From Planctomycetota bacterium (GTDB lineage: Bacteria; Planctomycetota; UBA1135; UBA2386), in the NCBI GenBank assembly GCA_016235155.1, contig JACRLW010000103.1:8066-72065 (forward strand): a stretch of DNA of 64,000 nt, in the 5' to 3' direction. The notes beneath the pieces are model-generated. The model had not been told where the DNA came from. It made no database searches and saw only the letters and a program-made list of their open reading frames with translations. Both the position numbers and the translations under genes were made by a program. Positions 4,548 to 59,100 of this stretch are shown here, one piece after another. Numbering within the stretch: position 1 is the first letter of the stretch; the number at the start of each line of letters is the position of its first letter.

Positions 4548-4941
4548 GCCGCACGGTCTCGATGCACGTCGCGGTGGAGGGTGAATGCGACCGGGCCATC
4601 GGCCTCGCGAGCTACAACCTCGCGCGCGCCACGCTCCATGGCTCGCGCTCCGCGACCTCGATCGCGATGAGTGCGCATCGCGGTTGATCGCGAGAATCCT
4701 CCGGTAGACGTCGATGTCGATGTCGCTCCACATCGCCCTGCGTGAGGCGGACGAATGGATCCTGACGGATCGCAACGTGGCACGGCACTCACGCCGTCGT
4801 GTGACCACGAAGGACCTCGTACCGACGCCGAGGGATACCGAGAGTGTCGGACGCGGCTGCGTGGGGAGCCTGGTCGGATTGGGCTTGCGCATCTGGCGGC
4901 GGGAGGACGCGGCCTTGACGAGCGACAGCCTCGCGCACTGA
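4544..4941 (+). pseudogene. broken remnants of the ATPase partner gene (possibly DUF4276-like)
   Basis: GTG overlaps the ATPase stop (GTGA at 4544-4547). It reads VSRTVSMHVAVEGECDRAIG... and stops after ~47 codons. A later fragment reads ...HIALREADEWILTDRNV. The family assignment is only a weak recollection-based guess. Confidence 0.2.
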
Positions 4942-4975
4942 GAGCACGCGGTCGAGCGCGACTCCGGCACTCCGC

Positions 4976-7408
4976 TCAGACCCCGATCCGCAACCGCAGC
5001 CCCCGCGAGAACGCCAATCCCTGGCTCGCGCCAACGTCGACGACGACTTCCTGCACGAAGAGCTGGGCGCCGCTCAGCGCGTTGTCGTCGGGGATGGCGA
5101 GCGGGAGCGTCGAGCCGCCGGGCGCGACGAGGAGCGAGGGCGCGAAGATGATCAGGTCGACGAGCAGCGTGCCGTCGAAGGGGGTCGGCAGGTTCGCGGG
5201 GAGGAGGCCGATGAGCAGCGCGGCGAGGGTGGTCTGGCCCAGCGAGTTGCCGAGTTCGAGGTTCGGCGTGCTGCCGAGCATCGGGTCGATCGACGCGCCG
5301 AGCGCGGGAACGCCGAGCGTGCCGGGGTGGCCCGCGCCGTAGAGCTCCTGCTCCGCGACGGGGATCTCGAGGCGTGCGACCCAGACCGCGCTCGTGCCAC
5401 CACCTGGGGTCTGGAACGCGCCGGGAGTCACGGGGATGTCAGTGCCGCCGCCGGCGCCGCTGAAGAACACCGCGTCGTGCGGCCCCAGCGCGACGCGGTC
5501 GGCGTTGAGTCCGCGGATCGTGGTGCCGAGCGCCGACGCAAAGCGCAGCGTCGAACCGGATGCGTCGAGCATCGCGAGGAGGGCGAGGTCGAACTGCGTC
5601 GACACCACTGCTTGCTGGACGGGATGCACGTACGGAAACACGGTCGAGCGCGTGGCGCCGGCGAGCCAGCAATGGCCGTTCTCGTCGACCGCAACGTCGT
5701 AGAGGTTGTCGGTTGCGGTGCCGCCGAGGTAGGTGAGGAACACGAGCGACGCCGCGCCGCCAAGCGATGGATCGAGCTTCGCGACGAAGCCGTCGCGCAG
5801 GCCGCCGAAGGTCGGCTTGAACGCGCCGGGCGTCGTCGGGAGATCGTTCGAACGCGTGTTGCTCGCGATCACGACGCAGCCGAGCGGGTCGACGTCGATG
5901 CCGAGCGGCTCGAAGCCGACCTCGCCGTCGTCGTTCGAACCACCGACGTACGTCGAGTAGACGAGGTTGGAGAGGGTGGAGTCGAAGACCGCGACCCAGG
6001 TCTCCATGTCCCCTGACGGATGCGAGGTGCGGAAACCGCCCTGGATCGGCACGGTGAATCGCGTGCGGCCTGCCACCGCGATCTTGCCATCCACGGCCAC
6101 GGCGACGTCGAGCGCTTCGCTGGTGCTCGTGAGGCCGAAGTAGGTCGCGCCGAGGAACGCACCGTTGACGTCGAAGCGGGCGACGTAGGCGGAAACCGAG
6201 CCGTTGCGTTGCGTCTGGAAGCCGCCATTGCCCAGCGGCAGACCCTGCGTGTTGGTCGAACCGCAGATCACCACGTTGCCCTGGGCATCGGTGGCCACGC
6301 CGCGCGCCGGAGAGTTGGTCGCCGTCGTCAACGTGTAGTAGGTCGACCACACCAGCGTCCCCGTCGGCGAGAGCACCGTGACGCCCGCGACGCCGCTGAA
6401 CGCGACGAGCGGCCCGGGGAACGCGGCGTTGAGCAACGGGTAGTCGGGCGAGCCGGTCGAGCACGCGACGACGGCATTGCCGTTCGGCAGGACCGCGACT
6501 CCCCCCGGCACGTCGGCGGCGCTCCCGCCGAGGTAGGTCGAGTAGACGAGGCTCGAGCCATCCGCGCTGAGCTTCGCGACGAAGACGTCGGTGGGACTCT
6601 GGCGAGTCCCGATCAGCGGGTTCTGCACCGGGAAGTCCGTCGAACTGGTCTGTCCGACGATCACCGCGGAACCCTGCGCATCGACCGCGACGCTGACCTG
6701 CTGCTCGGTGTCATTGCCGTCGAAGCGCGCGACGTATGCGATCACGGGATCGATCACGAGTTCCCTCGTGCGGTCCCAGGCGCCGAGTTCGATCGCGAAC
6801 GTCGCATCGCCGCGCGGCACGTACCGCGCGGCCACCTCGCGACGACCTTCCGGCGTGGTCTGGAACGCGATCGGCGCATGGTGGCGACACTCGCCGAGCG
6901 CCGTCGTGACCACGAGATCGCCGCTGTCGTCGAGGACGACGCGTTCGGCGCCGTCGATCCGCACCGCGAACACGGACGGATCGCCGCCCGGCGCGACGCA
7001 GAGGTCGTACTCCAGAGCACCGCCATCGGCGCGCCACACGACGTCGATCCCGGGCCACACGGAAGCACAACGCACGCGCTCGAAGGTCGGCACCCCGATG
7101 CGCCAGGTCTCCGGGTCCGCGCCGCGGATGTGATTCACGAGCTGCGGCGTCTTGGCCTCGCCCTCGGCGGGTCCCTCCGCACCTGCCCCGACGAAGCGCA
7201 CGCCGAAACCGCCGGCCGCATCGCCGCGCCGCATACGGAGCCACGCGCCGTCGCGATCGACCGCTGCCTCGCACTCGAGACCACGTGCGATCCAACGGGG
7301 CGCGACTCCGGCCGTCGGCTCGAACACTCGCGGACGTGCGAGCAGTTCCTGAGGTGCGGGGACGAGGGTGACGGCAAGGACGGCCGAGGCGAGCAGGGTC
7401 GAGGACAT
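4976..7408 (-). CDS. secreted SBBP (beta-propeller) repeat protein with shared C-terminal domain
   Basis: The signal peptide is MSSTLLASAVLAVTLVPAPQ. SBBP-type units recur: VSVAVDAQGSAVIVGQTSSTDFPVQNP, DVFVAKLSADGSSLVYSTYLGG, DGFVAKLDPS..LVFLTYLGG. The 5' third of track ORF 4976..7924 is R/G-rich and overlaps the divergent sigma gene, so I moved the start to ATG 7408. Confidence 0.85.
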   Translation of the reverse strand: MSSTLLASAVLAVTLVPAPQELLARPRVFEPTAGVAPRWIARGLECEAAVDRDGAWLRMRRGDAAGGFGVRFVGAGAEGPAEGEAKTPQLVNHIRGADPETWRIGVPTFERVRCASVWPGIDVVWRADGGALEYDLCVAPGGDPSVFAVRIDGAERVVLDDSGDLVVTTALGECRHHAPIAFQTTPEGRREVAARYVPRGDATFAIELGAWDRTRELVIDPVIAYVARFDGNDTEQQVSVAVDAQGSAVIVGQTSSTDFPVQNPLIGTRQSPTDVFVAKLSADGSSLVYSTYLGGSAADVPGGVAVLPNGNAVVACSTGSPDYPLLNAAFPGPLVAFSGVAGVTVLSPTGTLVWSTYYTLTTATNSPARGVATDAQGNVVICGSTNTQGLPLGNGGFQTQRNGSVSAYVARFDVNGAFLGATYFGLTSTSEALDVAVAVDGKIAVAGRTRFTVPIQGGFRTSHPSGDMETWVAVFDSTLSNLVYSTYVGGSNDDGEVGFEPLGIDVDPLGCVVIASNTRSNDLPTTPGAFKPTFGGLRDGFVAKLDPSLGGAASLVFLTYLGGTATDNLYDVAVDENGHCWLAGATRSTVFPYVHPVQQAVVSTQFDLALLAMLDASGSTLRFASALGTTIRGLNADRVALGPHDAVFFSGAGGGTDIPVTPGAFQTPGGGTSAVWVARLEIPVAEQELYGAGHPGTLGVPALGASIDPMLGSTPNLELGNSLGQTTLAALLIGLLPANLPTPFDGTLLVDLIIFAPSLLVAPGGSTLPLAIPDDNALSGAQLFVQEVVVDVGASQGLAFSRGLRLRIGV

Positions 7409-19356: not shown

Positions 19357-20985
19357 TCAGTCGCCGAACCGGAACTCGATCCGGTCCGAGGCGACCAGGC
19401 CCGCCGGATTGGCGAGGGAGTCGACCGCGACGGTCTGGAAGGCCATCGCAAGCCCGATGATCGCCGGGACGTTGGGAACGATGAACGGACCGATGTTCGC
19501 GACTCCCGCGCCGTCCGACGAGGTGAAGATGTTGAAGCCGTCGGTCGTCGCGTAGGCGGTGCAGCCGGTCATGCCCAGCGCCGTGAGCGGGATCGCCGCC
19601 GGCATCCCGAGATTCATCACGACGGGAGTCGACGCGAGCGCATTGCGCGCCGCGAAACCGACGGACTGCGAGAGGCGCGGACAACCGGTGAGGTACGCCC
19701 GGATCCGATTGCCCGCGCTGCCAAGACACGCGATGCCGGAGCGGGTCACGCGCGGCGGCGCGCCGGTGAAGCCGAGGTCGTACAGGCGCGCGAAGCCGAC
19801 GTTGGTGCCGACGAAGGGTGAGTCCTCGCGGGACGCGACGACCACGTCGGGATGGCCGTCGCCGTCGGCGTCGCCGACGCCCGCGATCGAGTAGCCCTTG
19901 GTCGGACTGACCGCGGCGTTCAACGTGACGCCGGTGAGTTGCGCGAGGACGGCGCCGCTGGTTCCCGACCGCGCGATGAGGTTCACGGTGGCGTTCAAGA
20001 GGCCCGTGAGTTCGAGCGTCACGAGGTCTTGGATGCAGTCGCCGTTCACGTCGCCGGCCGTCGCGAAGATCTCCGCGCCGATCGGGGTCCAGGAGGCGAG
20101 GAGCGAACCGTTCGCGCCGCTGCGGATCTGCGACAGCGCCGAGCCCGCCGCCGTCGAGATCGCGTAGTCGTCGCGGCCGTCCTGGTTCACATCGCCGACG
20201 AACGCGATCGAGTGGAGCGTGTCGAGGGACCCGAGCGCGTGCGTCGTGAGCAGGCTGCCGTCGGACCCGGAGCGGACGTAGACGCTCGGGCCGCCCGAGG
20301 TACCGATCGCCGCCGCGACGAGGAAGTCGCGGACGCCGTCGCCGTTCGCATCACCCCGCCCGGCGAGCTGCGTGCCGAGGCGCTGGCCGGCGGTGCCGAC
20401 GAAGGCCGGCACGATCAGCGCCTGCGTGGCGCCGGAGACGAGCTCCACGCGACCCGGAACCGCGGTCGACGTCGACGCTGCGACGACGAAGTCGGGAACG
20501 CCGTCGAGGTCGACGTCGCCGACCGCGGCGAGCTGCGATCCGTAGCCGAGACCGGGAGAGCCGAGCACGGTGAAGAGGAGTGACCCGGTCATCCCCGAGT
20601 AAGCGCGGACCGAGCCGGCCCCCGCTCCTCCCGTCGCGTCGCCGGGCGCCGACACCGCGAAGTCCGCGCGGCCGTCCAGGTCGAGGTCGCCGAGCATCGC
20701 AACGCGAGTCCCGAACCCCGAACCGGTCGCTGGTCCGTGCAGGATCCAGATCACCGCGCCGGTCGAGCCGGAGAGCACGCGGGCCGTACCGAAGGTCGGA
20801 CCGCCGACGCTCGAGTTCGAACTGCCGACGATCACGTCGGGGCGGCCGTCGCCGTCGACGTCGTGACCGCCGTCGACGCTGTTGCCGAGGCGTTCGCCGG
20901 CCGTCCCCGCGAAGTTCCAGAGCGCGGTCGGTGTCTGAGCATCCGCGAGACTCGCGGCGAGGGCGAACAGGACGATCACGCGCAT
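19357..20985 (-). CDS. secreted FG-GAP repeat protein with shared C-terminal domain
   Basis: The signal peptide is MRVIVLFALAASLADAQ. FG-GAP calcium-site repeats are GHDVDGDGRPDVIV, GDLDLDGRADFAV, GDVDLDGVPDFVV, GDANGDGVRDFLV, GDVNQDGRDDYAI and GDADGDGHPDVVV. An alternative start is ATG 21021. Confidence 0.85.
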   Translation of the reverse strand: MRVIVLFALAASLADAQTPTALWNFAGTAGERLGNSVDGGHDVDGDGRPDVIVGSSNSSVGGPTFGTARVLSGSTGAVIWILHGPATGSGFGTRVAMLGDLDLDGRADFAVSAPGDATGGAGAGSVRAYSGMTGSLLFTVLGSPGLGYGSQLAAVGDVDLDGVPDFVVAASTSTAVPGRVELVSGATQALIVPAFVGTAGQRLGTQLAGRGDANGDGVRDFLVAAAIGTSGGPSVYVRSGSDGSLLTTHALGSLDTLHSIAFVGDVNQDGRDDYAISTAAGSALSQIRSGANGSLLASWTPIGAEIFATAGDVNGDCIQDLVTLELTGLLNATVNLIARSGTSGAVLAQLTGVTLNAAVSPTKGYSIAGVGDADGDGHPDVVVASREDSPFVGTNVGFARLYDLGFTGAPPRVTRSGIACLGSAGNRIRAYLTGCPRLSQSVGFAARNALASTPVVMNLGMPAAIPLTALGMTGCTAYATTDGFNIFTSSDGAGVANIGPFIVPNVPAIIGLAMAFQTVAVDSLANPAGLVASDRIEFRFGD

Positions 20986-21249
20986 CGCGAGCGCGCGCTT
21001 CTGGTCGGGGGAGGATCGCATGGTTCGGTGGCGAGCGGGACGGAGGAAGAGGACCGAGCCGAGGACGGCGAGCAGCGCGGACCGGCTCGCGTTCGGGCGC
21101 CGCGCGGGGGTCATGGCGCAGGAGCGGGTCCGCTTTCCCCTCCGCGACGATCCGATGTTTGGTCGCTATCCTCCGGCGCTCGCGTCGAACCCTTGGCGCG
21201 GCCAACGACCTCCGCGCCGAACGCAGCGCGCGGGCCCTCCCTGCGAACG

Positions 21250-24401: not shown

Positions 24402-24416
24402 GGATGGCCTTCTACC

Positions 24417-24449
24417 ATGAAATCCTGCGGGTAGAGCGCAGGATTTCAT
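24417..24449. promoter_or_regulatory. perfect 13-bp inverted repeat (atgaaatcctgcg-N7-cgcaggatttcat), AT-rich relative to surroundings
   Basis: Read directly from the sequence. It lies 16 nt upstream of the ATPase pseudogene start (24401, minus strand), in the 312-bp gap before the gene at 24713. It is a candidate operator or hairpin. Confidence 0.4.
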
Positions 24450-24712
24450 ACCTGGGCCTGGTCGTCCCGACCACGACGGGTCGGGATTCTCCGCTGCGTC
24501 GGGGTCCTCGGGAAACGGCCTGTCATCGATCGCACACGCGCCCAAGGGGAGATCCGAGCGGCATCGTGCAGGTCTCGAACGAATCGAAGCGACGGCGCGA
24601 GGAATCGACGCCCGAACGCGGGGAGACGCGGCACGGACTTCATCGCGGCACATCCGTTGCCCTGCGCGGCGCCCACCGCGCGAGCGAGTCCCCGCTCGCG
24701 TCCCTCCCCTCG

Positions 24713-26083
24713 ATGACCATGACGACGTCTCGCATCGCGTTTGCGTCTCTCCTCCTCTCCACCGTCGCGACGGCCCAGGTCCCCGACGGTTGGTACGCCT
24801 GGACGGCGTTCGGCACCGCCGGGCGCAGCGGCATCTTTCTCTCGCACCCGCGCACGCCTTCGATGCCGATCGCGGTCGAAGGCTTGAACCCCGACCTGCT
24901 GTACGTGCCCGGCGGTCGTGCCGGCGGCGCGTGCATCCTGGTGCGATCGTCCGACGGCGCCCTGATCGCCGGCGAACGCGCCGCGGTCGGCAACAGCGTC
25001 GACCTCCACGTGATCCGGTTGAACGGCGTGAGCGTCGCCTTCGACCAGCTCTTCAGCGTGGGCACCGCCGGGCCTGCCGGCGAGATCCCGCAAGCCGCGC
25101 TGATGCCCGACGGTCGCGTGCTGGTCGCGGCGACCGATCTCGTGCAGGGTCCGCTCGCGAACGTGCCGACCGCCAACTACGGGATGGAAGGAGTGGGCAT
25201 CGTCGATCTCCGCGGTGGCGCGGTGACGCCGGTGCCGATCGCGAATCCCGCCGTGTTCCAGAGCGGCGTGTTCAACGGGATCACGCTCTCGGCCGACGGC
25301 ACGACGGCCTACATCGCGAACTACGTGTCGTCGACGCTCGGGGAGGTCTGGGCCCTGCCGGTCCCCGCGGGCGGCGCCGCGACGCTGCTCACCACGGTGC
25401 CGGCCGGCATCTCGAACGTCGGCCTCGATCTGAACGGCGACCTGATGATCGTCTCGCTCAACGGACCGCCGAACTGCTGGCGCTGGGACTTCGCCACGCA
25501 GACGCAGACGGCGATCACGACCGGCACCGGGCCGCTCAACGCGATCGGGCTCGAGTCCGTGACGGGCATGTTCCCGTTGTGCACCGCGAACGCCGGCACG
25601 CCGATCCGCTCGATCCTCTGGATGGACCCGAGCGGAACGACTTCGCTGCTGGCGACGCCCGGCTACGGCACGCCGTCGGGCATCGCGGCCCGCGACAACC
25701 CGCGCACCTTCGGCGTCGCGACGGCGAGCGCAGACGTCTACCTCTGGAAGCTGCGCCCGAACCAGGGCGGCCTGCCGACCGTCGGCAACGCGGGCTTCAG
25801 CCTGACGATGGAGGCCGGCAACCCCAACGCGATCCTGTTCGGCGGCGTGTTGCTCGGACTCGCGAAGGCGGCCACTCCCGTCAACGTCGCCGGAGTCGAC
25901 GTGCTGCTCGACCCGGCCCTGATCGTGTGGGCCGGCGTGCTCGGTGCGAGCGCCACGCAGTTCCTGCCGCTCGGCATCCCGAACGACGCGTCGCTCGCCG
26001 GTGCCTCGTTGTTCGCACAGGGCATCCACGTGTCGCAGACCGGCCTGATCGGCACGAACGGCCTCGAGTTCACGATCCTCTGA
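24713..26083 (+). CDS. secreted hypothetical protein (beta-propeller-like) with shared C-terminal domain
   Basis: The signal peptide is MTMTTSRIAFASLLLSTVATAQ. The body is Gly/Thr/Ala-rich and predicted beta-rich. The C-terminal ~100 aa is homologous to the tails of four other proteins in the window. Confidence 0.7.
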   Translation: MTMTTSRIAFASLLLSTVATAQVPDGWYAWTAFGTAGRSGIFLSHPRTPSMPIAVEGLNPDLLYVPGGRAGGACILVRSSDGALIAGERAAVGNSVDLHVIRLNGVSVAFDQLFSVGTAGPAGEIPQAALMPDGRVLVAATDLVQGPLANVPTANYGMEGVGIVDLRGGAVTPVPIANPAVFQSGVFNGITLSADGTTAYIANYVSSTLGEVWALPVPAGGAATLLTTVPAGISNVGLDLNGDLMIVSLNGPPNCWRWDFATQTQTAITTGTGPLNAIGLESVTGMFPLCTANAGTPIRSILWMDPSGTTSLLATPGYGTPSGIAARDNPRTFGVATASADVYLWKLRPNQGGLPTVGNAGFSLTMEAGNPNAILFGGVLLGLAKAATPVNVAGVDVLLDPALIVWAGVLGASATQFLPLGIPNDASLAGASLFAQGIHVSQTGLIGTNGLEFTIL

Positions 26084-41774: not shown

Positions 41775-41938
41775 GGATCTGTGGGTGCGGGCTCGAAGAG
41801 CGAGCGGGCTCGGCATATTACAGCGGCCGTCGTCGTCGTGACCGTCGCCGGTTCCGGTCGACGTGCGCCGCGGCGGCCTAGGACGCCGACCCATCCCCGA
41901 AGCTTCCGAACCTGGTCCACGATCGATTCCGATCGCCG

Positions 41939-43021
41939 ATGAGTTCCGCCCCATCGATCGAAGCGCTGACCGCCGCGCTCCGCCGCATTCCCGATCCCCA
42001 CCGTGGGGGCGACATCGTCACCAGCGGCGCCGTGCGGGAGCTCCGGATCGAGACCGGGAAGGCGCGCTTCCTCCTCGCCCTGGTCGAACCAGCCAGCGAA
42101 AAGGCGCAGGCGACGCTCGCCGCCGCCGAACGCGCCGCGATGGCGGTGCCGGGCGTCGCGGAGGTCAGCGCCCGGGTGGTGCAGGCCGCGCCCAAGGCAT
42201 CGGACGGCCTGCCGCAGAAGCAGGCGATCCCCGGCACGCGGCGCGTCGTCGCCGTCTCGTCGGGGAAGGGCGGCGTGGGGAAGTCGACGGTCTGCGTCAA
42301 CCTCGCGTGCGCGATGCAGCTCGCCGGCGACCACGTCGGCGTGCTCGACGGCGACATCTACGGCCCCGACATCCCGCTGATGCTCGGCGTGAAGGGCAAG
42401 CCGCAGGGCAGCGGCGACAAGCTCTTCCCGTTCGTCGCGCACGGCATGCAGGTGATGAGCATGGGCATGCTGGTCCCCGAGGACCAACCGATGATCTGGC
42501 GCGGCCCGATGCTCAACAAGGCCGTGCAGCAGTTCATGTTCCAGGTCGACTGGCACGACCTCGACTGGCTGTTCGTCGACATGCCGCCGGGCACCGGCGA
42601 CGTGCAGCTCACGCTGACGCAGAACACCGACATCACCGGCGCGGTCGTCGTGACGACGCCGCAGGACGTGTCGGTGCTCGACGTCAGGAAGGCCGTGCGC
42701 ATGTTCGAACGCATCGACGTGCCCGTGCTCGGCGTCGTCGAGAACATGTCCTGGTTCCAACCCCCGGGCAGCACGGAGCGCTACGAGCTCTTCGGCAGCG
42801 GCGGCGGCGAGCGCATCGCTCGCGAGTTCGGCATCCCCCTGCTCGGACAGATTCCGATCGGCATCCCGGTCCGCGAAGGCGGCGACCGCGGAGCACCGAT
42901 CACGCTCACCGATCCCGACGGTGAGATCGGAAAGGCCTTCCGCGCGGCCGCTCGACGCATGGTCGAACGCGTCCGCGAAATGGAGACTGCAAACCCATCG
43001 CGGTCGAGGCCGCAACCCTGA
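41939..43021 (+). CDS. Mrp/NBP35 (ApbC) family iron-sulfur cluster carrier ATPase
   Basis: A DUF59-like N-terminus is followed by VSSGKGGVGKSTVCVNLA, DGDIYGPDIP and FVDMPPGTGD. Confidence 0.9.
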   Translation: MSSAPSIEALTAALRRIPDPHRGGDIVTSGAVRELRIETGKARFLLALVEPASEKAQATLAAAERAAMAVPGVAEVSARVVQAAPKASDGLPQKQAIPGTRRVVAVSSGKGGVGKSTVCVNLACAMQLAGDHVGVLDGDIYGPDIPLMLGVKGKPQGSGDKLFPFVAHGMQVMSMGMLVPEDQPMIWRGPMLNKAVQQFMFQVDWHDLDWLFVDMPPGTGDVQLTLTQNTDITGAVVVTTPQDVSVLDVRKAVRMFERIDVPVLGVVENMSWFQPPGSTERYELFGSGGGERIAREFGIPLLGQIPIGIPVREGGDRGAPITLTDPDGEIGKAFRAAARRMVERVREMETANPSRSRPQP

Positions 43022-46532: not shown

Positions 46533-46790
46533 ATGGCCGCAGCGAAGAAGAAGCCCGAGTCGGGCAACTACACCGAAGCCGCGACGGAGCTCGAGTCCAT
46601 CCTCGACGAGATCGAGAACGGCAGCGCCGACATCGACGTGCTCGGCGAGAAGGTCGAACGCGCGGCGGCGTTGATCCGCCAGTGCCGCGAGACCCTCGCC
46701 GGGACCGAACTCCGCGTGAAGAAGGTCGTCGACGAACTCAGCGCCGCCGGCGGCGACGCGTCGGACGACGGCGACTCCGACGAGGAGTGA
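46533..46790 (+). CDS. xseB: exodeoxyribonuclease VII small subunit
   Basis: The product is 85 aa (NYTEAATELESILDEIENGSADIDVLGEKVERAAALIRQCRETLAGTELRVKKV). It lies immediately after xseA. Confidence 0.85.
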   Translation: MAAAKKKPESGNYTEAATELESILDEIENGSADIDVLGEKVERAAALIRQCRETLAGTELRVKKVVDELSAAGGDASDDGDSDEE

Positions 46791-46807
46791 TCGGCGCCGC
46801 GGCGACC

Positions 46808-47497
46808 ATGGACTACCAGCAGATCGTCCTCCTCTACGGCGTGCTCCTCGTGAGCCTCGTGGTCCACGAGGCCTCGCACGCGCTCTTCGCGCTCTGGGGC
46901 GGCGATCGCACCGCCTACGTCGGCGGCCAGGTCTCGCTCAATCCGATCCCTCACATCCAGCGCGAGCCCTTCGGCACCGTCATCCTGCCCCTGCTCGTCC
47001 TCTTCATGAGCAAGGGCACGATGATCCTCGGCTACGCGCACATCCCGGTCGACCCGGTCTGGGCAGAGCGCTATCCGAAGCGCGCGGCGCTGATGTCGGC
47101 GGCGGGACCGCTCGCGAACTTCGCGATCTGCGCGGTCGCGTTCGTCGGGTTGAAGACGCTGTGTTGGACCGGCCTCACCGACGCGTGGCCCGCGGGCAGC
47201 GGTCTTCTCGGCCCCTTCGTCACGCCCGTCGACATCACGAACGACTACGTCTACGGGGCCGCGCGGGTCGGATCGGCGTTCCTCACGCTCAACCTGCTGC
47301 TCGGGATCTTCAACCTCTTCCCCTGGCCGCCGCTCGACGGCGCGGGCGTCCTCGGCGGGCTCTCGCGCCCACTGGGCACCTTCTATGCGTTCGCGCGCAC
47401 GCAGCCGATCCTGATGCTCATCGGCATCGTCGCGGTGTGGCGCCTGATTCCGTACGCGTTCGAGCCGGTGGTGGTGCGTGTGCTGAACTGGCTGTGA
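46808..47497 (+). CDS. site-2 protease family (M50) membrane metalloprotease
   Basis: The HExxH motif sits in a TM helix (LVVHEASHALFA). The second motif is NLLLGIFNLFPWPPLDG. Confidence 0.8.
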   Translation: MDYQQIVLLYGVLLVSLVVHEASHALFALWGGDRTAYVGGQVSLNPIPHIQREPFGTVILPLLVLFMSKGTMILGYAHIPVDPVWAERYPKRAALMSAAGPLANFAICAVAFVGLKTLCWTGLTDAWPAGSGLLGPFVTPVDITNDYVYGAARVGSAFLTLNLLLGIFNLFPWPPLDGAGVLGGLSRPLGTFYAFARTQPILMLIGIVAVWRLIPYAFEPVVVRVLNWL

Positions 47498-47504
47498 CGA
47501 CCGC

Positions 47505-49604
47505 TCAGCGCGGGGCAACCCGCACGAACCCCCCAGCACCATCCCAGCGCCACGACTCGCGGTGTGCACCCCACACGACGGTGCAAAGGAGCGCCCCACC
47601 CTCTTCGCGGCATTCCAGGTCCGTGACATCGCTCGCGTGATCGGCGGTGCCGGCCTGGAGCACGCCGGCGAAGACCACGCCGGCACCACGCCGCTCCAGA
47701 GCGACGAAGGGTGCCCGGTCGTCCACGGATTGCAGCGGTCCGGTGCCGAGCCGCAACCGCGTGGGTCCACCGGCCGCGACCAAGAGCGTCGTCGTGACCT
47801 TGCCCCCGCCGAAGTCGACCGAAGCCCCGCTCCCGGTCTCGCCCTGCGCGAGCCATTCCACGAACTCCTCGCCCTGCAGTCCGACCTCGCCGGCGACCTC
47901 GTCGACCGCGAGCGCGCAGCGCACGTCCGGACCGCGGTCGTGGTAGATCCAGTCGAAGCGGTGCTCGCTCTCGCTTCTCAGCCGGTCGAGCACCAGGACG
48001 TAGCGATCCGTGAGACACAGGCAACGCGCGTGCTCGACGCCCGGATAGGCATCGATCGTCTTCGCCGCCACCGCGACGAAGTCCTCCGCGTCGACGAAGC
48101 CCAGCAATTCGCCGCCGCTCTCGTGCTGCGGCCGGCCGTCGACGACGACCGTGTTGTGCGCGAGTGTCGTCCGGTACCAGCCGCCGTGGATGGGAAGCCG
48201 GTAGGCTTGGCTCTTCGCACGCCCCGGGTCGACGCCACGCTCCTCCCCGAACGCAAACCAGACGAAGGACAGCCGATCGAAGTGGTCGTGGAAGCCGCCG
48301 AACGGAGCAAAGGTCACCAGCGCCGACATCCGCGCCGCCCCACCGCGGCGCAGGATCGCGTGCCCCGACGCGCGCAGCACCTCACTCCGGAGCACGCCCT
48401 CCGGTACGGACTGGCCGGGGTCGCGCCCGAAGCGGATCGACTCGAAACTCGGCTCGGCCGACAGCACGACCCCAAGGCGCGCGTCGCGGGTCGCCGCAAG
48501 AGCCGCCTCGAGCGACGCTGCCGCGCCCTGCGGCGAGCTGTCGACGTCGTCGCCGAGCCGCGGCAGCCGCCCGTTTGCCATCACGTAGCGGGCGGGCAGC
48601 GCGCACATCGCGCGCAGACTCGGATGCGCGAACAGGTCGACCCCCATGAGCCGCGCGGCATCGGCATGCGCACACAGCGCGGCCAGCGTGTAGTTGTGGT
48701 AGCCGAACGAGTTCTCGTACCACATCCCGTCGGCCGACACGGACGCCCCCATCTGGAACAGGAAGCCGTGCCGTGGATCGAGCACCGATCGGCGCAACCA
48801 GTCCGCGTCGCCGAGCAGCACGCCGGCGCTGAACATCGCCGCGTTGTGCCAGCTCTGCCAGTTGCTCTTGCCGCGACGACACTTGGCGATGTTCGCCACC
48901 ATCGGCCGCACGAGGTTCCCGAGCGCGTGCTCGCGCTGCGCCGCGTCGAGCGAGTGCCAGATCAAGTCGATCACCGGTGCGATGTCGCGCACGAGCATCG
49001 ATGCCTCGGACAGGGTCTGCTCCATCAGATGGCCGCCGCTGTCGAGACGCCGCGTCGGGTCCGCGGCGTTGCTGTGGTAGGGATAGCCCTCGTAGCGGTC
49101 GGCATAGCCGAGCACGACCGTCGCAGCGTCGGCCGCGAACGCCGTCTCGCCGCTCAACGCGAACGCCCACGCGGCCTCGCGCGCGCGGCGGAGATTCTCG
49201 GAGTGGCGGCGGCTGAACACGACGTCGTCGTACGGCGGCCCGCTGTAGACCTCAGCGCAGCCGGGGCAGCGGTGGTGCGAGTCGTCGACGGTGGTCAGCG
49301 CGCGCTGGCAGGCGTCGCACTGGTACCACTGGTTGTGCTGACCGCCGCGCGGCGGGAACCCGACCGGAGTGCCGAGGCGGGCTCTTGCAGCGTCGACGAC
49401 CGAGCGCAGCGGTGCTGCGCCGCGGCCGAAGCCGGCGCGCAGGTTCGCGAGTTCAGCAGCGCTGCAGGCCAGGATCGGCGCGTCGTGGCGAACCGGCGGG
49501 ATCAGGTCGGCCGCGGTCGGCGGGTGCCAGTCCTGGGCAAACGCCGAGGAGAACAGCGAGACCGCGGCGAAGGCGGCAGCGCGAGTCCATTGCATGCTCA
49601 GCAT
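47505..49604 (-). CDS. heparinase II/III-like polysaccharide lyase family protein
   Basis: The signal peptide is MLSMQWTRAAAFAAVSLFSSAFAQ. An alginate-lyase-like helical N-domain is followed by FGGFHDHFDRLSFVWFAFGEE, typical of the Hepar_II_III domain. Confidence 0.75.
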   Translation of the reverse strand: MLSMQWTRAAAFAAVSLFSSAFAQDWHPPTAADLIPPVRHDAPILACSAAELANLRAGFGRGAAPLRSVVDAARARLGTPVGFPPRGGQHNQWYQCDACQRALTTVDDSHHRCPGCAEVYSGPPYDDVVFSRRHSENLRRAREAAWAFALSGETAFAADAATVVLGYADRYEGYPYHSNAADPTRRLDSGGHLMEQTLSEASMLVRDIAPVIDLIWHSLDAAQREHALGNLVRPMVANIAKCRRGKSNWQSWHNAAMFSAGVLLGDADWLRRSVLDPRHGFLFQMGASVSADGMWYENSFGYHNYTLAALCAHADAARLMGVDLFAHPSLRAMCALPARYVMANGRLPRLGDDVDSSPQGAAASLEAALAATRDARLGVVLSAEPSFESIRFGRDPGQSVPEGVLRSEVLRASGHAILRRGGAARMSALVTFAPFGGFHDHFDRLSFVWFAFGEERGVDPGRAKSQAYRLPIHGGWYRTTLAHNTVVVDGRPQHESGGELLGFVDAEDFVAVAAKTIDAYPGVEHARCLCLTDRYVLVLDRLRSESEHRFDWIYHDRGPDVRCALAVDEVAGEVGLQGEEFVEWLAQGETGSGASVDFGGGKVTTTLLVAAGGPTRLRLGTGPLQSVDDRAPFVALERRGAGVVFAGVLQAGTADHASDVTDLECREEGGALLCTVVWGAHRESWRWDGAGGFVRVAPR

Positions 49605-51725: not shown

Positions 51726-52859
51726 TCAGTACCCGATCGTCAGTTCGACGCCATTGCTACTCTCGGCGAAGCCGAGCAATGCGCCGCCCGGTCGGAGCGG
51801 GATCGCCTGCGCCGTGAGCACGCCGCCGGCAAGTCCGGGTTGCGCGGGCACGGTCAGGCCGAAGCTCCAGGACCCGGAGGAATCCGTCGACCCGGCCGTC
51901 AGGAGCACGGCGTTCGGCAAGTCGAGGTACAGCGTGCACGTGCCGATCGCCGTGGGCGTCGCGGCGCCGGGTGCGATGCCGAACACGACTGCCTGCAACG
52001 GGGCGGCGCCGCTCATCGTGAACGCGAGGTTCTGGCCGAGCGATGGTGCGTTCGACGCGAGCGACGGCGGCGTCACGCCGCAGCCGGTGCCGACGACGCG
52101 GGCGTCGGGCGACAGCGTGCCGTAGCTGCGGCCCGAACACGCCAGCAAGGTCGCGCCGGGCGTGAGGCACGCGAAACCGACGCGCGCGACGAGGTCGCAG
52201 GCGTAGGACGACGTCATGGGGGAACCACCCTGGATCGCCCGCGCGAAGAGCGACACGTTCAGCCGGCCATCGACGCTCAGCCGCGCGCCGACCTGCGTGT
52301 TCACGATCCCGGTGACGGCGCCCGCGGCATTGCTGATCACCAGGCTCGGCGCCGAACCGACCGACAACTGCGCGCGGTAGGACACGCCGGGCACGGGATC
52401 GATCACCTGCGCGAAACCGTCGAGCGTCAATGCGCAGCGGATCTGCACCGGAGTCCCGATCGGAAGGGTGCCCGAGACGACGCTGAGCTCGTCGCGGAAG
52501 TGCGCCTTCGGTTCGGCGCCGATCCACTCGTCGAGCCACAGGAAGACACCGATCCCGGACACGTTGTTCGCCAGGCCGGTGCCCGAGCAGCGCAGGAGTC
52601 CGTAGTCGGTGGTCGCCGTGCAGTCCCCCTGCGAACGGCAGCCGTAGGTGTTGGTGGTCGTGATCGTGTCGGAGGTCACGAGCGGGCCCGCGCTCAGCCA
52701 GCCGGTGTCGACGCGACGCTCGCCGCTCGGCGCGCCGCTCATCGACGTGACGATGCGAAAGTGGTTGCGGACGCCGCAGGACTGTGCGGCGACCTGATTC
52801 GAGTCGCCGATCGCCGTCGCGGTGAGGACGACGAGGATCGCGTTGCGAAGGCAGTGCAT
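51726..52859 (-). CDS. secreted hypothetical protein with shared C-terminal domain
   Basis: The signal peptide is MHCLRNAILVVLTATAIGDSNQVAAQ. I recognise no domain in the first ~260 aa. The last ~110 aa are homologous to the tails of four other proteins here. Confidence 0.65.
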   Translation of the reverse strand: MHCLRNAILVVLTATAIGDSNQVAAQSCGVRNHFRIVTSMSGAPSGERRVDTGWLSAGPLVTSDTITTTNTYGCRSQGDCTATTDYGLLRCSGTGLANNVSGIGVFLWLDEWIGAEPKAHFRDELSVVSGTLPIGTPVQIRCALTLDGFAQVIDPVPGVSYRAQLSVGSAPSLVISNAAGAVTGIVNTQVGARLSVDGRLNVSLFARAIQGGSPMTSSYACDLVARVGFACLTPGATLLACSGRSYGTLSPDARVVGTGCGVTPPSLASNAPSLGQNLAFTMSGAAPLQAVVFGIAPGAATPTAIGTCTLYLDLPNAVLLTAGSTDSSGSWSFGLTVPAQPGLAGGVLTAQAIPLRPGGALLGFAESSNGVELTIGY

Positions 52860-52935
52860 GCCGCTTCCAGCGGCTCGTGTTCCGGAACCACACGCCGCCC
52901 GCGGGACGAAAGCCCCGCGGGCGAACACCGGGACC

Positions 52936-55900
52936 TCAGTTCCCGAGCACCATCGTGCCGGCGTTCGCCGTCAGCACGCCGAGCGTGTTCGCGCCCGGTG
53001 CGACGACGCCGCCTTGGGTCTCGAGCACGGCGCCGAGCAAGGACGCCGAGTTCGGGATCGTGAACGGCGCCGTAGCACCGCTCCCGCTGACGAGCATCGG
53101 GATCGAGTCGATCGGCGCGACGAGGAGGAAGCAGCCCTGCATGCCGATGACGCTGAGGTCCACCGACTGCGCGACCAGCCCGAACAGCGTGAAGCCGGCG
53201 AGCGAGCCCGCGGGCAGGTTGCTCAGTTCGAGGTTGATCGTCGTGCCGAGCCGCGGCAGCGAGCTCACGCCATACGCGATGGGCGTTCCCGAACCGGGGT
53301 TCGAGATGTCGCTCGGGCCCGGATCGGCCACGCCGCCGCCGACCGAGTGACCGACGATGCAATCGACGATCGAAGCCGCGCCATAGGCGAGGACGAACTC
53401 GCCGTTCGGGTAGAGCTGGATCTGCCCCGTGTTGGACCCGGTCGCGGGGTACTCGGGCACGCCCGCCCAGGTGATCACCGCCATGCCCGGCACCGCGTCG
53501 AAGTAGACGCCGCCGCCGTTGCCCGGGTGCAGGTCGTCCCAGAACGCCGCAATGCGCCGCGGGTTGGCGAGGAACTCCGCCACCGACTCGGTGTAGTCGG
53601 TGCCCGCGTGCGTGTTGGCGACCAGACCGATCCAACCGTTCGAGTCGACGTCGATCGCGGTGGTCGTGCCGCCGCCCGGGAGCGGGAACGCGAAGCCGAG
53701 CGGACGATTGCGCGAGATCACGTCGTCGCCGAGCAGGAGGTTGCCCGAGTAGCCGGCAAAGAAGCTCGCGCCGCTCGTCGACACGTTCCACCCGCCGCTG
53801 CCGTTGGGCGTGAAGCGCCGCGCGCTGTTGGCCAGGTCAAACGCGCCGAAGACCTCGTAGAAGGTCCGCGGCAGGCTCGGCGTGCCCTGCGGAGCGCAAC
53901 CGGCGCCTCGCGGCGTGAAGCGCGCGCGGATGATGCCGCCCGATCCGGTGACGCCGACGCAGCACAGGGCGTACGACGCATCGAACACGGTCGTGCCGAT
54001 GTGCGCGTCCTCCGCGATCAGGGTCGCGATGACCTCGATGGTCCAGGACCCCGCGGCCGGGCTCTGCACGAACACGCATTCGACCGTGTCGACGGTGTTC
54101 GCGACCCCGCCGGCCGTCGACCAGTTGCCGGCCGTGAGGCCATTGTTGCCCCAGTAGATCGTGCCGTTCGGAGCCGTGACCTTGAGCGTGAGGTCGTTCT
54201 TGATGGCCAACGCCGACGCCGGATTGCCGGCCGGGTCGACGTAGGTCATGCAGATCTTCAGCTCGGGCGTGCCGGCCGCGACCGTCTTCTGGTACGTGCG
54301 CGTGATGCCCTGCGTGAGGATGTCGTCCTCGGCGACGATGAACGAGTTGCCCTGGTTGTCGTACATGTCGGTGAGGCTCGGGAAGCCCCAGCCGCAGTGC
54401 TCGCGCCGGTTGTTGGTGCTCGCCGACGTGAACGCGTATTGCCGCGCGTTCACGATCTGCAGCGCCTTCAGAGTCTGCGCCAGCGGCCGGTTCTGGAACC
54501 GCGTGCCGCCCGGGACGGGCAGCGGGTTGCCGAAGATCCCGTCGGTGTACATCTGGATCGCGAGCGCGTTGTGGCCCGCGCAGATCGGCGTCGCGCCTGA
54601 TGTGCCGCCGAAGTTCGTCTGCCAGTTGTTGGCCGAATAGCCGGCCGCGCCGGTCAGATCGGAGCACAGGATCAGGTCGTAGTACGCGCAGAGGTCGGGC
54701 TTGATGCGCCCATCCGCCGCCGGACCCGTCGACCCGCCGCCCGCCGCCCACGAATCGTCGGCCGCGTTCGAGTTGTCGAAGTGCGCGACGCCGCCGATCG
54801 AAATGATGTTCTTCGCCCAGGCCTGCGGCCGCGAATCCTGATTGCCCGCGTTGCTCTGACTCTGCGTCCAGGGGATGCGGTGGTCGAAGATGATGTCGTC
54901 CGCGTCGGCGGAGATGGACGTGTAGAGCCGCGTGCGCGCGTCGCCCCACGACGCGGTGGTGAACATGCACTCGTGCGTGTTGACGACCACGCCGAGCACC
55001 GCGTTGCGTGAGCCCTGGGCGCTCGAGTAGTTGGTGTAGAAGCCGCGCGCGTTCGGCGCCATGCCGCGCCCGAGCGGATTGCTCGTGCCGTTGCCGAAGA
55101 CGATGCCCGCGGTCGAGTGACCGTGTGCATCCGGGGCGCCGCCGCTCAGCACGTTGGTCATCGGCGTCGTGAAGTCCTGGTGCGTCGCCTCGACGCCCTC
55201 GTAGACGTGGCCGCGCACGCCGGTGCCCGTGTAGCCGCCCTGGGTCTCGACGTAGTTCGCGCCGCCCTGGATTCGGGCGTTGTTCATGTCCTCTTCAGGG
55301 GCCGTCCAGCGATCGATCCACAGGACCTCGTCGAACCGCGCCGCCGCGAGCAGCCCCGCGTGATCGAGTTCGACGGTGAACAGGATGCTGCCCTCCTGCG
55401 GATCGACGACGCGTCCGCCGAGTGCCCTGATCTTCGTGCCGAGCGCCGGCTTGTCCGAACGCTTGTCGGTGACCACACAGTGGTACTTGCGCAGCGGCAG
55501 GACGGCGCCTCTCGCGAGCTCCATGCGCAACGCCGGCTCGAGCCGCCACGCCGGCTCGTAATGCCCGACGAAGCGAGTGTCCTTCTGCGCCGCGACCATC
55601 GCCGCCTGGTCCGCCGTCATGCGAACGACATACGCGTTGTGCGGCAGGTAGCCATGCAACCGCGCACCGGTGGAACGGACCGCGTCACGTCCCGCGTCGG
55701 TCGGCGAGCCGTGGAACTGCACAACCCAGAGGCCGACGTCGCCGCGCGCGGCGAGCAGCTCGGGGACCGCCGGTCGTCCGAGCAAGGGATCGAAGGTGCC
55801 GTACTGGAGGACGAGTTGCGTGGCCTCGCCGGCATCGGCGAGCAGCGTCGGCGGATCGCCGGGCTTGGACTGGGGACTCTGCGCGGGAAGCGTCGCGAGG

Positions 55901-55944
55901 AAGCACGCAATCGTCGCGCCGCTGAGGAAGAGCACGGGGTTCAT
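52936..55944 (-). CDS. secreted subtilisin-like (S8) serine protease with large C-terminal extension and shared C-terminal domain
   Basis: It has a signal peptide (MNPVLFLSGATIACFLATLPAQ) and an I9-like propeptide (VVQFHGSPTDAGRDAV...AYVVRMT). The His motif is DAHGHSTAGIV and the Ser motif is FGGTSGATPICAG. I could not place the Asp motif with certainty. The start is ATG 55944. Confidence 0.8.
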   Translation of the reverse strand: MNPVLFLSGATIACFLATLPAQSPQSKPGDPPTLLADAGEATQLVLQYGTFDPLLGRPAVPELLAARGDVGLWVVQFHGSPTDAGRDAVRSTGARLHGYLPHNAYVVRMTADQAAMVAAQKDTRFVGHYEPAWRLEPALRMELARGAVLPLRKYHCVVTDKRSDKPALGTKIRALGGRVVDPQEGSILFTVELDHAGLLAAARFDEVLWIDRWTAPEEDMNNARIQGGANYVETQGGYTGTGVRGHVYEGVEATHQDFTTPMTNVLSGGAPDAHGHSTAGIVFGNGTSNPLGRGMAPNARGFYTNYSSAQGSRNAVLGVVVNTHECMFTTASWGDARTRLYTSISADADDIIFDHRIPWTQSQSNAGNQDSRPQAWAKNIISIGGVAHFDNSNAADDSWAAGGGSTGPAADGRIKPDLCAYYDLILCSDLTGAAGYSANNWQTNFGGTSGATPICAGHNALAIQMYTDGIFGNPLPVPGGTRFQNRPLAQTLKALQIVNARQYAFTSASTNNRREHCGWGFPSLTDMYDNQGNSFIVAEDDILTQGITRTYQKTVAAGTPELKICMTYVDPAGNPASALAIKNDLTLKVTAPNGTIYWGNNGLTAGNWSTAGGVANTVDTVECVFVQSPAAGSWTIEVIATLIAEDAHIGTTVFDASYALCCVGVTGSGGIIRARFTPRGAGCAPQGTPSLPRTFYEVFGAFDLANSARRFTPNGSGGWNVSTSGASFFAGYSGNLLLGDDVISRNRPLGFAFPLPGGGTTTAIDVDSNGWIGLVANTHAGTDYTESVAEFLANPRRIAAFWDDLHPGNGGGVYFDAVPGMAVITWAGVPEYPATGSNTGQIQLYPNGEFVLAYGAASIVDCIVGHSVGGGVADPGPSDISNPGSGTPIAYGVSSLPRLGTTINLELSNLPAGSLAGFTLFGLVAQSVDLSVIGMQGCFLLVAPIDSIPMLVSGSGATAPFTIPNSASLLGAVLETQGGVVAPGANTLGVLTANAGTMVLGN

Positions 55945-56159
55945 GATCGTGGGAGCAAGGGGAGGGAACCGCCCCGCCGCGCGAAGGGCAGACGCGCGAG
56001 CGACGTGGGCCGGCGGAGGATAGCCCCGCATCGCCGTCGCCGTCGAACGCCGACGATGCTCGTGTGTCATCCCGGAACTTGCGCCTCGCCGGATCGCGCT
56101 CATCGCATCGCGCTCACGCAGCGAAGTTCGTGAATCCCCACGAGCCGCTCGCGACGAGG

Positions 56160-59100
56160 ATGGTCGCCATGGGCCCGATCGAACGGGACTTCGACGTCTT
56201 CCGCACCCGGCACGACCCCGCCGCGCTCGGCTCCGTCTTCGACGCCGTCGCACCGGAACTGCTGCTGGTCGCCGCGCACTTCGCCGGGCCCGGCGTCGAG
56301 GCCGAGGACCTCGTGCAGGCGACCTTCGTCGACGCGATCGAGAAGGCGGCGCGTTGGGACGCGACCCGACCGCTCGTCCCGTGGCTGATCGGCATCCTCG
56401 TGAACCACGCTCGGGCCGCGCGACGCCGCGCGCGCAAGGCGATCGACGTCGACCGCGCCGCGCACGATGTCGTGGTCGATCCGCTCGAAGAACTCCAGGC
56501 GAGCGAGGTCGCCGGGCGCGTGGGCGAGGCGCTGCGGTCCCTGCCACGGCAGTTCCGTCAGGCGCTCACGCTGCGCCTCGTGCACGGCCTCACCCCCACG
56601 CAGATCGCGCACGCGATCGGCTGCCCCGTCGCGACGGTCAAGACGCGCCTCCAGCGCGGCATGGACCAACTGCGCCGCGCGTTGCCCGCGGGCATCGCCG
56701 GCTCGCTCGCGCTGGTGCTGAGTTCGCAGAAGAGCCTCGCCGCCGTGCGTGTCGCCGTGCTCGCGCACGCCAAGGCTCTCGTTCCCGCCGCCGCTGCCGC
56801 CGCCGCGGGGATCGCGGTTGCCGTCGCCTCCACCGGACTGGTCATGAAGAAACTCGTCGCCGCCGCCGTCGCCGTCGTGATCGGCGTCGCGCTCTGGACC
56901 AGTCTCGATTCCCCTTCCGCTGGCGAACGCCCCGCTCCGGACCACCCCGACGCCGCCGCGCAGCGCGTCGCCGAACTGGCGCGAGACACTTCGTCCAGCG
57001 CGACCCCGAGCAGCGACGCGATTCCCGGTGCGCGCGCGGCGATCGCGACCGAACCGCCCGCGACCACCGGCAGCGCGATCCTGACCTGCGTGTGGAAGCA
57101 CGACGGCACACCGGCACGCGCGCTGCGCTTGTCGATGCCCGGGACTTCCGACGGTCCCGGCGACACGCGTTCGTCCCCGTGGCGGCAGCTTCGCAGCGAC
57201 GACGCTGGGCGCGTCGAGCTGCGCGATCTCGACCCGGGGGAATACATCGTCTCGGGTCGATCGCGCTCGACGTCGCTCCGCATCGTCGCGGGCGAGTGCG
57301 TCGAACAACGCATCGAGTTCGAAGCAGCGCTGCGCATCGACGGGCGCGTCGTCGACGCGAGCGGCGCAGCCGTCGCGGACGCGGAGGTCTGGCTGCAGTA
57401 CTTCCCGGACCCGCAGGACGACCGGCCGCGGAAGGTGGCGAGTTCCCGTGCGGACGGGACCTTCCGCTGCGCATTCGACTTCGGCGGTTCGCTGTGGGCG
57501 CGCAAGGCGGCGCACGCGTCGAGTGCCTGCGTCGACGTCGAGCAGGAGGGCCACGCCGAGGTCGTGCTCGAACTCGGCGCCCTGGTCGCGTCGCTGCGCG
57601 GCTCGGTGCGCAAGGCCGACGGCTCCCCCGCCGCGCGCGCGCATCGACTTCGTGCGCGACGCCCACGAGGACGCGCGGCATGCGCCGCTCGTGTTGTGGT
57701 CCGACGCACTGGGCACCTTCGCCACGGACGAACTCGCGCCCGGCGAGTGGCGCATGGTGGCGCAGGCCGACGACCACGCGCCGACGATGCGTCGCGTCAC
57801 CCTCGATCCCGACGCCGCGATCGAGCTGCGTCTCGAACGCGGTGCCACGCTGTTCGGTGAGGTCCGCGACGGCGCGGGTGCGCCGATCGCTGCGGCGATC
57901 GCGGTCTGTCCGGCGTGGGCGCTCGACCAGCGCGCGCTTCGACATCTCTGCGTGCGACAGGTCGTCGCCGATCCAGAAGGGCGCTATCGCATCCCGCAGG
58001 TGCCCTCCGGCGAACTCCGCTTCCGCGCGAGTGTCGAGCACACCATGGGAGTCGCGACCATGCTGCAAGCGCTCGACGGCCGCGAGCTGCGTCACGACGT
58101 CGTGCTCGACCGCGGCGCTTCGATCGAAGGCCGCGTGATCGGGCCGGACGGCGAGGGAATCGCGGGCTGGCAGGTGATCGCGTCGCCGAACGGCGGCGGC
58201 CACGGTCACGACGCGATCACGGGCGGCGACGGACGCTTCGCGATGCCCGGCGTGGAACCCGGCGAGTACTCCGTCGACGCGCGACCCGAGCAGGGCCTCT
58301 CCCGATGGACGCCCTCGGTGACCGTCACACCGGGCGGCGCACCGTTCGAACTGCGCGCGCTCGCGACCGACCGCGACGGCGCGCGGATCACCGGCACGCT
58401 CGCCGATCGGGAGGGCAGGCCGATCGTGCACGCGTCGGCGCGCTTACGGCTGGATCGCGATCCGAGCGGCGAGACCTCGATGACGGAGATCGACGATGCG
58501 CAGGGTCGTTTCGAGATCGGTCCGCTGCCGCCCGGTCGCTACGCGTTGGCGGTGCAACTCGGCGAGCACGGGTGGCTCGACACCGGCGTGCACGACGCCG
58601 CGCCGGGTTCGACGGTCGACCTCGGCCGCATCGTGCCGCCGGCACCGGGACGCCTCGCGATCCGGCTGCGCACACCAAAGGGCGAATCGGTCGAGCCGCT
58701 CGACGTCGCCGTGCACGACGCGGCGGGCAACGGTCCGTCGTCGTTCACGCGCGAAGCCGACGGCATCTGGCGGAGCCCGCCGCTACCGCCGGGCCGCTAC
58801 CAGCTCCGCGCCTGGGGCGAGCGCTTCGCGCCGTTGCGCACCGAAGTCGTCGTCGTCGCCGAGCGCGAGTCGCTCGCGGATCTCGCGATCGCAGCTGCGA
58901 CCGCGGTCACGTTTGCGCTGCGAAAGCCGCCGGGCATCGAGGGGCGCTGGACCGCGACCGCGTACTTCGCGCTGCGCGAAGTCCAAGGTGCGTACCTCGA
59001 CGGCCGCATGCTGACGATCGACACGACCGAAGAGTTCGTCCTCACGCGCGGTCTCGCGCCGGGGCGGTACGGGTTCGAGCTGCGCGCAACCGACGGCCCG

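Follow-up and report, generated by a model that had tools for sequence, protein, structure and literature searches.

Modular C-terminal domains occur on many secreted enzymes; dockerin attaches to a partner, and pre-peptidase C-terminal (PPC) domains (Pfam PF04151) are known to be cleaved off after secretion. A close described parallel to the element reported here is the C-terminal domain (CTD) carried by cargo of type IX secretion systems (T9SS). The T9SS core comprises PorK/L/M/N, Sov and PorU/V, with PorU cleaving the CTD. In the sources cited, solved CTDs have a 3+4, seven-strand fold (PMC11285876), small proteins made of a signal peptide plus a CTD exist, such as PorA (PMC7712824), and the system is described as restricted to Bacteroidetes/Bacteroidota (10.1101/483123, PMC10202324). 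Here, we analyze a 64,000-nucleotide stretch from a Planctomycetota bacterium (contig JACRLW010000103.1, positions 8,066 to 72,065; the whole stretch is referred to as the window) in which five otherwise unrelated and putatively exported proteins end in the same domain, hereafter the tail. We find that the tails constitute a new protein family, and suggest that they may act in sorting or surface anchoring, by analogy with the T9SS CTD.

The five genes (p1 to p5; Table 1) had been singled out in a preliminary description of the window as encoding signal-peptide proteins with unrelated N-terminal parts and a common ending. We found all five open reading frames (ORFs) where that description had placed them, each with its tail reaching the stop codon. 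Pfam gives DUF7948 and SBBP for p1, FG-GAP for p2 and Peptidase_S8 for p5, with none for p3 and p4, and all five have Sec-like N-termini ending in AQ, as judged from sequence and a hydropathy heuristic. Pairs of tails align collinearly in BLASTP, with 25–36% identity across 86–122 residues. Hidden Markov models (HMMs) built from four tails were also tested, in a leave-one-out design, on 507 six-frame segments of the same window, which has a GC content of 70.5%. The omitted tail was the top non-training match each time (E 4e-6 to 9e-9), with the next decoy at E 0.17–5, and real tails scored 27–36 bits against 9–14 bits for the best of 1000 shuffles per tail. Pairwise, leave-one-out and shuffle tests all agree with the common domain proposed earlier, confirming that the five tails are homologous, ~105–110 aa in length, and end at the stop codon. 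About one in ten genes of the 64-kb window carries a tail, and no sixth copy was detectable within it.

We searched 1.84 billion cluster representatives (50% identity) exhaustively with HMMER, using a profile of the five tails. This profile matched 4982 representatives with an E value of 1e-3 or lower, of which 176 reach 1e-10 or lower. Word-indexed searches with tail alignments returned just 2 and 7 proteins, as members have diverged too far to be seeded by 5-mers. All five window tails fit an HMM made from a 33-sequence family alignment (A2), with E values from 1e-16 to 2e-37. The consensus of 158 aligned domains reads PvLGtT..L.l.N.Pa...G....idL..iGMPGCtLl....PL.IPNdPaL.G..L.aQ....dPGAN.LGl.tSNGL.LtlGN. 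Its near-invariant columns are Gly, Pro and one Gln, and the conserved columns overall are Gly, Pro, Gln, Asn and Ser. The family motifs are collinear (P.LG...L...N.P / G(M)PGC / IPN.P.L.G..L..Q / PGAN..G..SNGL.L.IG) and end 0–2 residues before the stop.

The preliminary description could put no name to the tail, and the tails, run against Pfam, NCBIfam and PDB sequences, likewise matched no described family. Neither the five tails at E <= 10 nor the 33 A2 members at E <= 0.1 had a meaningful match in Pfam-A (2025) or NCBIfam r20, a profile search of all PDB sequences returned nothing at E <= 10, and no account of the domain turned up in literature searches. The tails are a new family, to which we give the working name planctomycete C-terminal beta-sandwich tail. 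An AlphaFold run on 5 sequences (predicted local distance difference test score, pLDDT, 57) was superseded by a run on the 33-sequence alignment, in which the p5 tail is modeled with a pLDDT of 94.8 and a predicted template modeling (TM) score, pTM, of 0.83. The domain is confidently predicted to be an autonomously folding, eight-strand beta-sandwich of ~105–110 aa, often preceded by a [YF]GxGC motif. Compared with the PDB using Foldseek, this model recovers only generic immunoglobulin (Ig)-like sandwiches, namely T-cell receptor V, NIS1, arrestin-like, macroglobulin and transglutaminase domains, with a best E of 0.016 and TM scores of at most 0.54.

Two pointers toward named families were pursued and set aside. 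Weak Glutaminase matches to the p4 tail (E about 2e-4) were dismissed, as they are far below cut-offs and cover a 35-residue stretch in only one member. The fungal effector family NIS1 came up twice, as a weak Pfam Nis1 match on the p4 tail (E 0.025) and as the top Foldseek match of the p5-tail model (8xgl, E 0.016, TM score 0.40); this is probably coincidence, as the PDB profile search is empty.

In 145 of the 152 top hits, no more than 4 residues separate the end of the domain from the C-terminus, and in 144 the gap is at most 2 residues. Most family matches contain it as one stretch per protein, without tandem arrays. The Pfam passengers of the 84 full-length hits include FG-GAP (9 hits), Rax2/DUF5122, PD40, Kelch and DUF7948+SBBP propellers, and also NIDO (4 hits), sulfatase, S8, trypsin, LamG, carbohydrate-binding module (CBM) and PKD domains; no Pfam family covers the tail in any of them. 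By the hydropathy heuristic, 73 of these 84 proteins open with a hydrophobic segment that resembles a signal peptide and mostly ends in AQ. Host names are available for eight of the 20 hits that we looked up, and all eight are Planctomycetota or Planctomycetes bacterium metagenome-assembled genomes (MAGs); seven of the proteins are called hypothetical in their annotation, and the eighth is labeled a WD40-repeat protein. Among named hits, the family is restricted to Planctomycetota.

The closest genomic relatives, as judged by the S8 protein p5, are a Planctomycetota MAG (L001), two further MAGs, L002 (labeled only "uncultured bacterium") and L004 (labeled Brocadiaceae), and Saltatorellus ferox Poly30, the nearest cultured relative that we found. 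The flanks of related loci hold extra tail ORFs: two in L001, two in L004, three in L024 and two to three in L026, in each case per 14–22 kb, and L026 also has the planctomycete hallmark genes PSCyt1, PSCyt2, PSD1 and DUF1501. An outer membrane has been described for the Saltatorellus clade, one member of which, Engelhardtia mirabilis, has a GC content of 70.3% (10.1101/817700).

Homologues of the p1 passenger allow the tail to be compared with the endings that other lineages use. Of 120 DUF7948+SBBP homologues collected, six bear the tail, and the sole named carrier is a Planctomycetota MAG. Among those whose ends were checked, three terminate in MYXO-CTERM (TIGR03901) and one (P0278) in Soli_cterm (TIGR03437, 64.8 bits); the remainder include ends with transmembrane-plus-Arg tags, dockerin-like repeats and an unnamed '...DVNGYFE' domain. 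The slot that the tail occupies is therefore one that, in other phyla, holds recognized signals for sorting or anchoring. The tail had been described earlier as having no transmembrane helix and no resemblance to the short CTERM tags, and our data support both statements: its best 17-residue Kyte-Doolittle hydropathy near the C-terminus is 1.09–1.38, compared to 1.7–2.9 in homologues with transmembrane-plus-Arg tags, and the tails match neither TIGR03901, which the controls matched, nor other CTERM models. The Soli_cterm HMM (TIGR03437) is also unmatched by the tails.

Two of these kinds of ending recur among the same 120 homologues. At least 15 of them (P0173, P0196, P0201, P0213, P0215, P0222, P0223, P0228, P0240, P0245 and others) end in '...C.Q.SGT.H.I.DV.GYFE', a segment without an NCBIfam match in the one example checked (P0228), which seems to be a further C-terminal module, so far unnamed, in the tail's slot. 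Seven others (P0233, P0172, P0188, P0206, P0243, P0249 and P0257) have duplicated terminal segments resembling 'DLTYLVDYLFRGGPPP...C'. These look dockerin-like, and the one checked (P0233) has no match in NCBIfam.

Charged residues (DEKR) make up 7.1% of the tail domain versus 13.5% of the passengers, while Leu accounts for 14.5% versus 7.2%. Aromatic residues dominate no column of the 158 aligned domains (top aromatic fraction 0.42), and no Pfam CBM matches the tails. Low charge and the lack of an aromatic-dominated column, unlike what is typical of carbohydrate-binding modules, would fit a protein-protein interface. Many members also have a [YFWH]GxGC motif 10–20 residues upstream of the tail (GTGCG in p4). 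In hits with an upstream [YFWH]GxGx, the Cys of this motif co-varies with the Cys of the GMxGC loop, with both present in 20, neither in 22 and a mismatch in 5. This co-variation suggests a disulfide between the two and, hence, an extracytoplasmic location. The putative disulfide probably pins the linker onto the sandwich, and the true start of the domain probably lies upstream of where the HMM sets it. The tail of p1 belongs to a Cys-less subtype, with YGAGH upstream and without the GMxGC loop.

We tentatively favor, at a little under an even chance, a model in which the tail serves, in its own lineage, to sort proteins or anchor them at the surface, much as the T9SS CTD does but without being related to it. 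In this model, tail proteins would cross the inner membrane via Sec, using their N-terminal signal peptides. The folded C-terminal domain would then be recognized by a hypothetical partner in the outer membrane or at the cell surface, and this partner would either translocate the protein to the surface or hold it there. We infer both the partner recognition and the surface localization, and the support for a sorting or anchoring function is circumstantial. We favor it because the tail is terminal in ~95% of top hits, is joined to many unrelated passengers, and sits mostly on proteins that start signal-peptide-like; because homologous passengers elsewhere bear known sorting tags in the same slot, with T9SS type A CTDs among them in Cloacimonadota homologues of the p5 NIDO-like region; and because paralogues are dense, with five in 64 kb here and two to three per 14–22 kb in related loci. 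The Cys co-variation, the low charge without an aromatic-dominated column, and the outer membrane described for the Saltatorellus clade (10.1101/817700) point the same way. A more far-reaching possibility, which we regard as doubtful, is that the tail is the cargo signal of an undescribed outer-membrane export or surface-attachment pathway in Saltatorellus-clade Planctomycetota and related MAG lineages, which would have arisen independently of type IX secretion while following the same logic. If so, the tail would define a large 'sorted secretome' and offer a handle for finding the machinery.

Several observations weigh against a sorting or anchoring role. The domain is internal in five of the 152 top hits, three times in mid-protein and twice right behind the signal peptide, and therefore a free C-terminus is not obligatory. 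Each of the three mid-protein copies is followed by an unannotated region of ~185 aa, and the extra C-terminal regions of all five proteins are without a Pfam match. Some proteins (P0004, P0081 and the product of a 183-aa gene in L024) are made up of a signal peptide and the domain alone; because such stand-alone proteins exist, the tail domain may act in its own right. The window also encodes signal-peptide proteins that lack the tail, among them a fucosidase and a heparinase-like protein, as does the S. ferox S8 orthologue (L003 5914-8457, NZ_CP036434.1), which ends in a different ~130-aa region (...GDTRCFQYWYRDSIITIPTSNFSSAACLIFE). Finally, the signal peptides and the disulfide are predicted from sequence alone.

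The main rival to sorting or anchoring, and one that we consider possible though unlikely, sees in the tail an ordinary module of Ig-like type that binds or adheres to an extracellular substrate, polymer or partner, has no part in sorting, and comes last in the protein as accessory domains often do. The internal copies and the stand-alone proteins speak for this reading, as they show function outside the terminal context; its structural neighbors are generic Ig-like sandwiches, and the passengers include many adhesin-like propellers and degradative enzymes, classes in which accessory binding domains are common. However, the position and copy number of accessory Ig or CBM domains usually differ from protein to protein, whereas 144 of the 152 top hits end no more than 2 residues past the last strand of the tail, and most matches are a single stretch without tandem arrays. 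The absence of aromatic-dominated columns and the 7% charged residues also argue against a plain binding module, as does the finding that recognized sorting tags fill the same slot in homologous passengers of other phyla.

We think it improbable that the tail instead assists folding or maturation as an intramolecular chaperone or pro-domain and is then removed post-export, as C-terminal PPC domains are. The tail does sit at the C-terminus of S8 and trypsin-like proteases, but most carriers are non-enzymatic propellers, and stand-alone copies have nothing to chaperone. In addition, neither PPC nor any other Pfam family is matched by the five tails or the A2 members at the thresholds given above.

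A highly diverged T9SS CTD, exported by a cryptic type IX system, would follow the same logic of a Sec signal peptide, a C-terminal Ig-like sandwich and diverse cargo, and Cloacimonadota homologues of the weakly NIDO-like region of p5 do end in true T9SS type A CTDs. Nevertheless, this explanation is very unlikely. The T9SS models TIGR04183 and PF18962 are unmatched by the five tails at E <= 10 and by the 33 A2 members at E <= 0.1, though the same searches detect control CTDs from Cloacimonadota loci (TIGR04183 30.6–36.2 bits versus a cut-off of 23). An hhalign comparison of A2 with an alignment of these control CTDs (A4) gives a probability of 0.1%. The earlier view that the tail does not resemble the T9SS domain thus holds for both family HMMs and profile comparison. 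The eight strands that the model has in ~110 aa may also set it apart from the seven-strand, 3+4 fold described for solved CTDs (PMC11285876), the 50 best Foldseek matches include no T9SS CTD structure, and T9SS is described in the accounts cited as confined to Bacteroidetes/Bacteroidota (10.1101/483123, PMC10202324).

The remaining explanation, a proviso of the preliminary description that the resemblance is only the Gly/Ala/Leu compositional bias of a 70%-GC genome, is refuted: Leu, Ala and Gly abound in the tails, charged residues are scarce and pairwise identities are only 25–36%, but leave-one-out E values separate them from 507 decoys of the same composition by more than four orders of magnitude, shuffled tails stay at or below 14 bits, 176 database representatives match at E <= 1e-10, and the 33-sequence alignment yields the high-pLDDT model.

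The coordinates of the five genes and their tails are collected in Table 1. For p2, the likely start is at 20985 or 21021, and for p3 the probable start is at 24713, giving a protein that opens MTMTTSRIAFASLLL. The only Pfam match to the p3 passenger is a weak one to DUF5122 (E 0.014), below significance. A public protein, P0161, is identical to p1 over 810 aa. The exact 377-aa product of p4 is among the gene calls of a public Logan contig, and a 1002-aa S8 gene that fits the limits of p5 is called beside p4 on such a contig (L023).

Table 1. Positions in the window of the five tail-bearing genes and of their tail domains (envelopes and E values of the A2 HMM).
Feature	Position	Strand	Description
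p1 gene	4976..7408	-	810 aa: signal-peptide-like N-terminus, DUF7948, SBBP propeller, tail
p1 tail domain	4979..5299	-	A2 HMM envelope, E 5e-26
p2 ORF	19357..21114	-	FG-GAP propeller, then tail; FG-GAP and FG-GAP_3 Pfam matches
p2 tail domain	19360..19689	-	A2 HMM E 3e-26; leave-one-out E 4e-6
p3 ORF	24404..26083	+	Passenger without significant Pfam match
p3 tail domain	25763..26080	+	A2 HMM E 1e-16; leave-one-out E 9e-9
p4 gene	51726..52859	-	377 aa: signal peptide, ~265-aa Cys-rich passenger (no match in Pfam search), tail
p4 tail domain	51729..52061	-	A2 HMM E 1e-21
p5 gene	52936..55944	-	1002 aa: signal peptide, S8 subtilase (Peptidase_S8 match), weakly NIDO-like region, tail
p5 tail domain	52939..53268	-	A2 HMM E 2e-37; copy modeled with AlphaFold

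The region of p5 between the S8 domain and the tail (53270-54000, - strand) has a weak Pfam NIDO match (E 0.037, below cut-off). It is kept, at 30–41% identity, in giant secreted proteins (L005-L022) of Acidobacteriota, Cloacimonadota, Methylomirabilota and Myxococcota, and many members of the tail family have this region joined to a tail. The C-terminal region that the S. ferox S8 orthologue has in place of the tail is without a match in Pfam and NCBIfam. We rejected it as a distant relative of the tail (hhalign probability against the tail profile, 0.5%); possibly, this clade has in it another C-terminal module that has no name yet.

Beside the p5/p4 pair lies a divergent ORF of ~1000 aa (56064-59075, + strand), which has extracytoplasmic function (ECF) sigma-70 regions 2 and 4 fused with an extended C-terminal part containing CarboxypepD_reg and may regulate the pair. 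Elsewhere in the window, a RhuM/Fic-domain gene (2790-3824, + strand) and an AAA_14/DUF4143 ATPase gene (23418-24653, - strand) stand amid housekeeping genes and look like mobile or defense-type insertions. Six long ORFs, all on the - strand, have no Pfam match at E <= 0.1 (61732-63750, 8047-9420, 27409-29070, 40848-41954, 46568-47770 and 3897-4970). Part of these may not be real genes, because overlapping ORFs are plentiful at 70% GC.

Protein transport across or onto the outer membrane is poorly understood in Planctomycetota, and the shape-shifting Saltatorellus clade is barely characterized; in such a phylum, the tail family is a direct handle on protein targeting. As nearly 5000 distinct 50%-identity clusters are without a Pfam, NCBIfam or PDB entry, the family profile can serve directly as a search key. 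The tagged secretome could be listed by an HMM census, against which phylogenetic profiling could reveal partner machinery, and the high-confidence model eases pull-down and reporter-fusion work. Should the tail prove to be a sorting signal, a T9SS-like folded C-terminal address label would have been invented a second time, independently. Should it prove to be a binding module and no more, the tails would still form an extensive unannotated family worth an entry in the databases.

How does the tail compare with known C-terminal modules? Like dockerin and PPC, it is a modular C-terminal addition to secreted proteins, but the tails have no Pfam match to either and no Ca-binding repeat signature, and most of their carriers are propeller proteins, not enzymes. 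Soli_cterm, the 'Solibacter uncharacterized C-terminal domain' (a paralog_domain model), is likewise a lineage-specific, paralogous C-terminal domain on diverse secreted proteins, and it takes the same slot on the DUF7948+SBBP homologue P0278. It differs in its longer model (225 positions), in its occurrence in Acidobacteriota and in an HMM that the tails do not match, and the comparison carries no mechanism, because the function of Soli_cterm is also unknown. MYXO-CTERM (TIGR03901) and the PEP-CTERM/exosortase tags share with the tail that they are lineage-restricted C-terminal address labels on diverse signal-peptide proteins, and MYXO-CTERM takes the same position on p1-passenger homologues. 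These tags, however, consist of a ~30-residue motif with a transmembrane helix and a basic cluster and are sortase-cleaved, whereas the tail is predicted to be a 110-aa soluble beta-sandwich without a transmembrane helix.

The T9SS type A CTD differs from the tail in that there is no sequence or profile similarity between them. The tail has eight predicted strands in ~110 aa compared to the seven-strand, 3+4 CTD, it has its own motifs (P.LG, GMPGC, IPN.P.L.G..L..Q and SNGL.L.IG), and its hosts are Planctomycetota, which have no known T9SS. In their architecture, the two are nonetheless alike. Each is, by structure or by prediction, an Ig-like beta-sandwich that closes the C-terminal end of Sec-exported proteins. 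Each is phylum-restricted, sits on many unrelated cargoes and has many paralogues per genome, and in both cases there are small proteins made of a signal peptide and the domain, with PorA as the example described for T9SS (PMC7712824).

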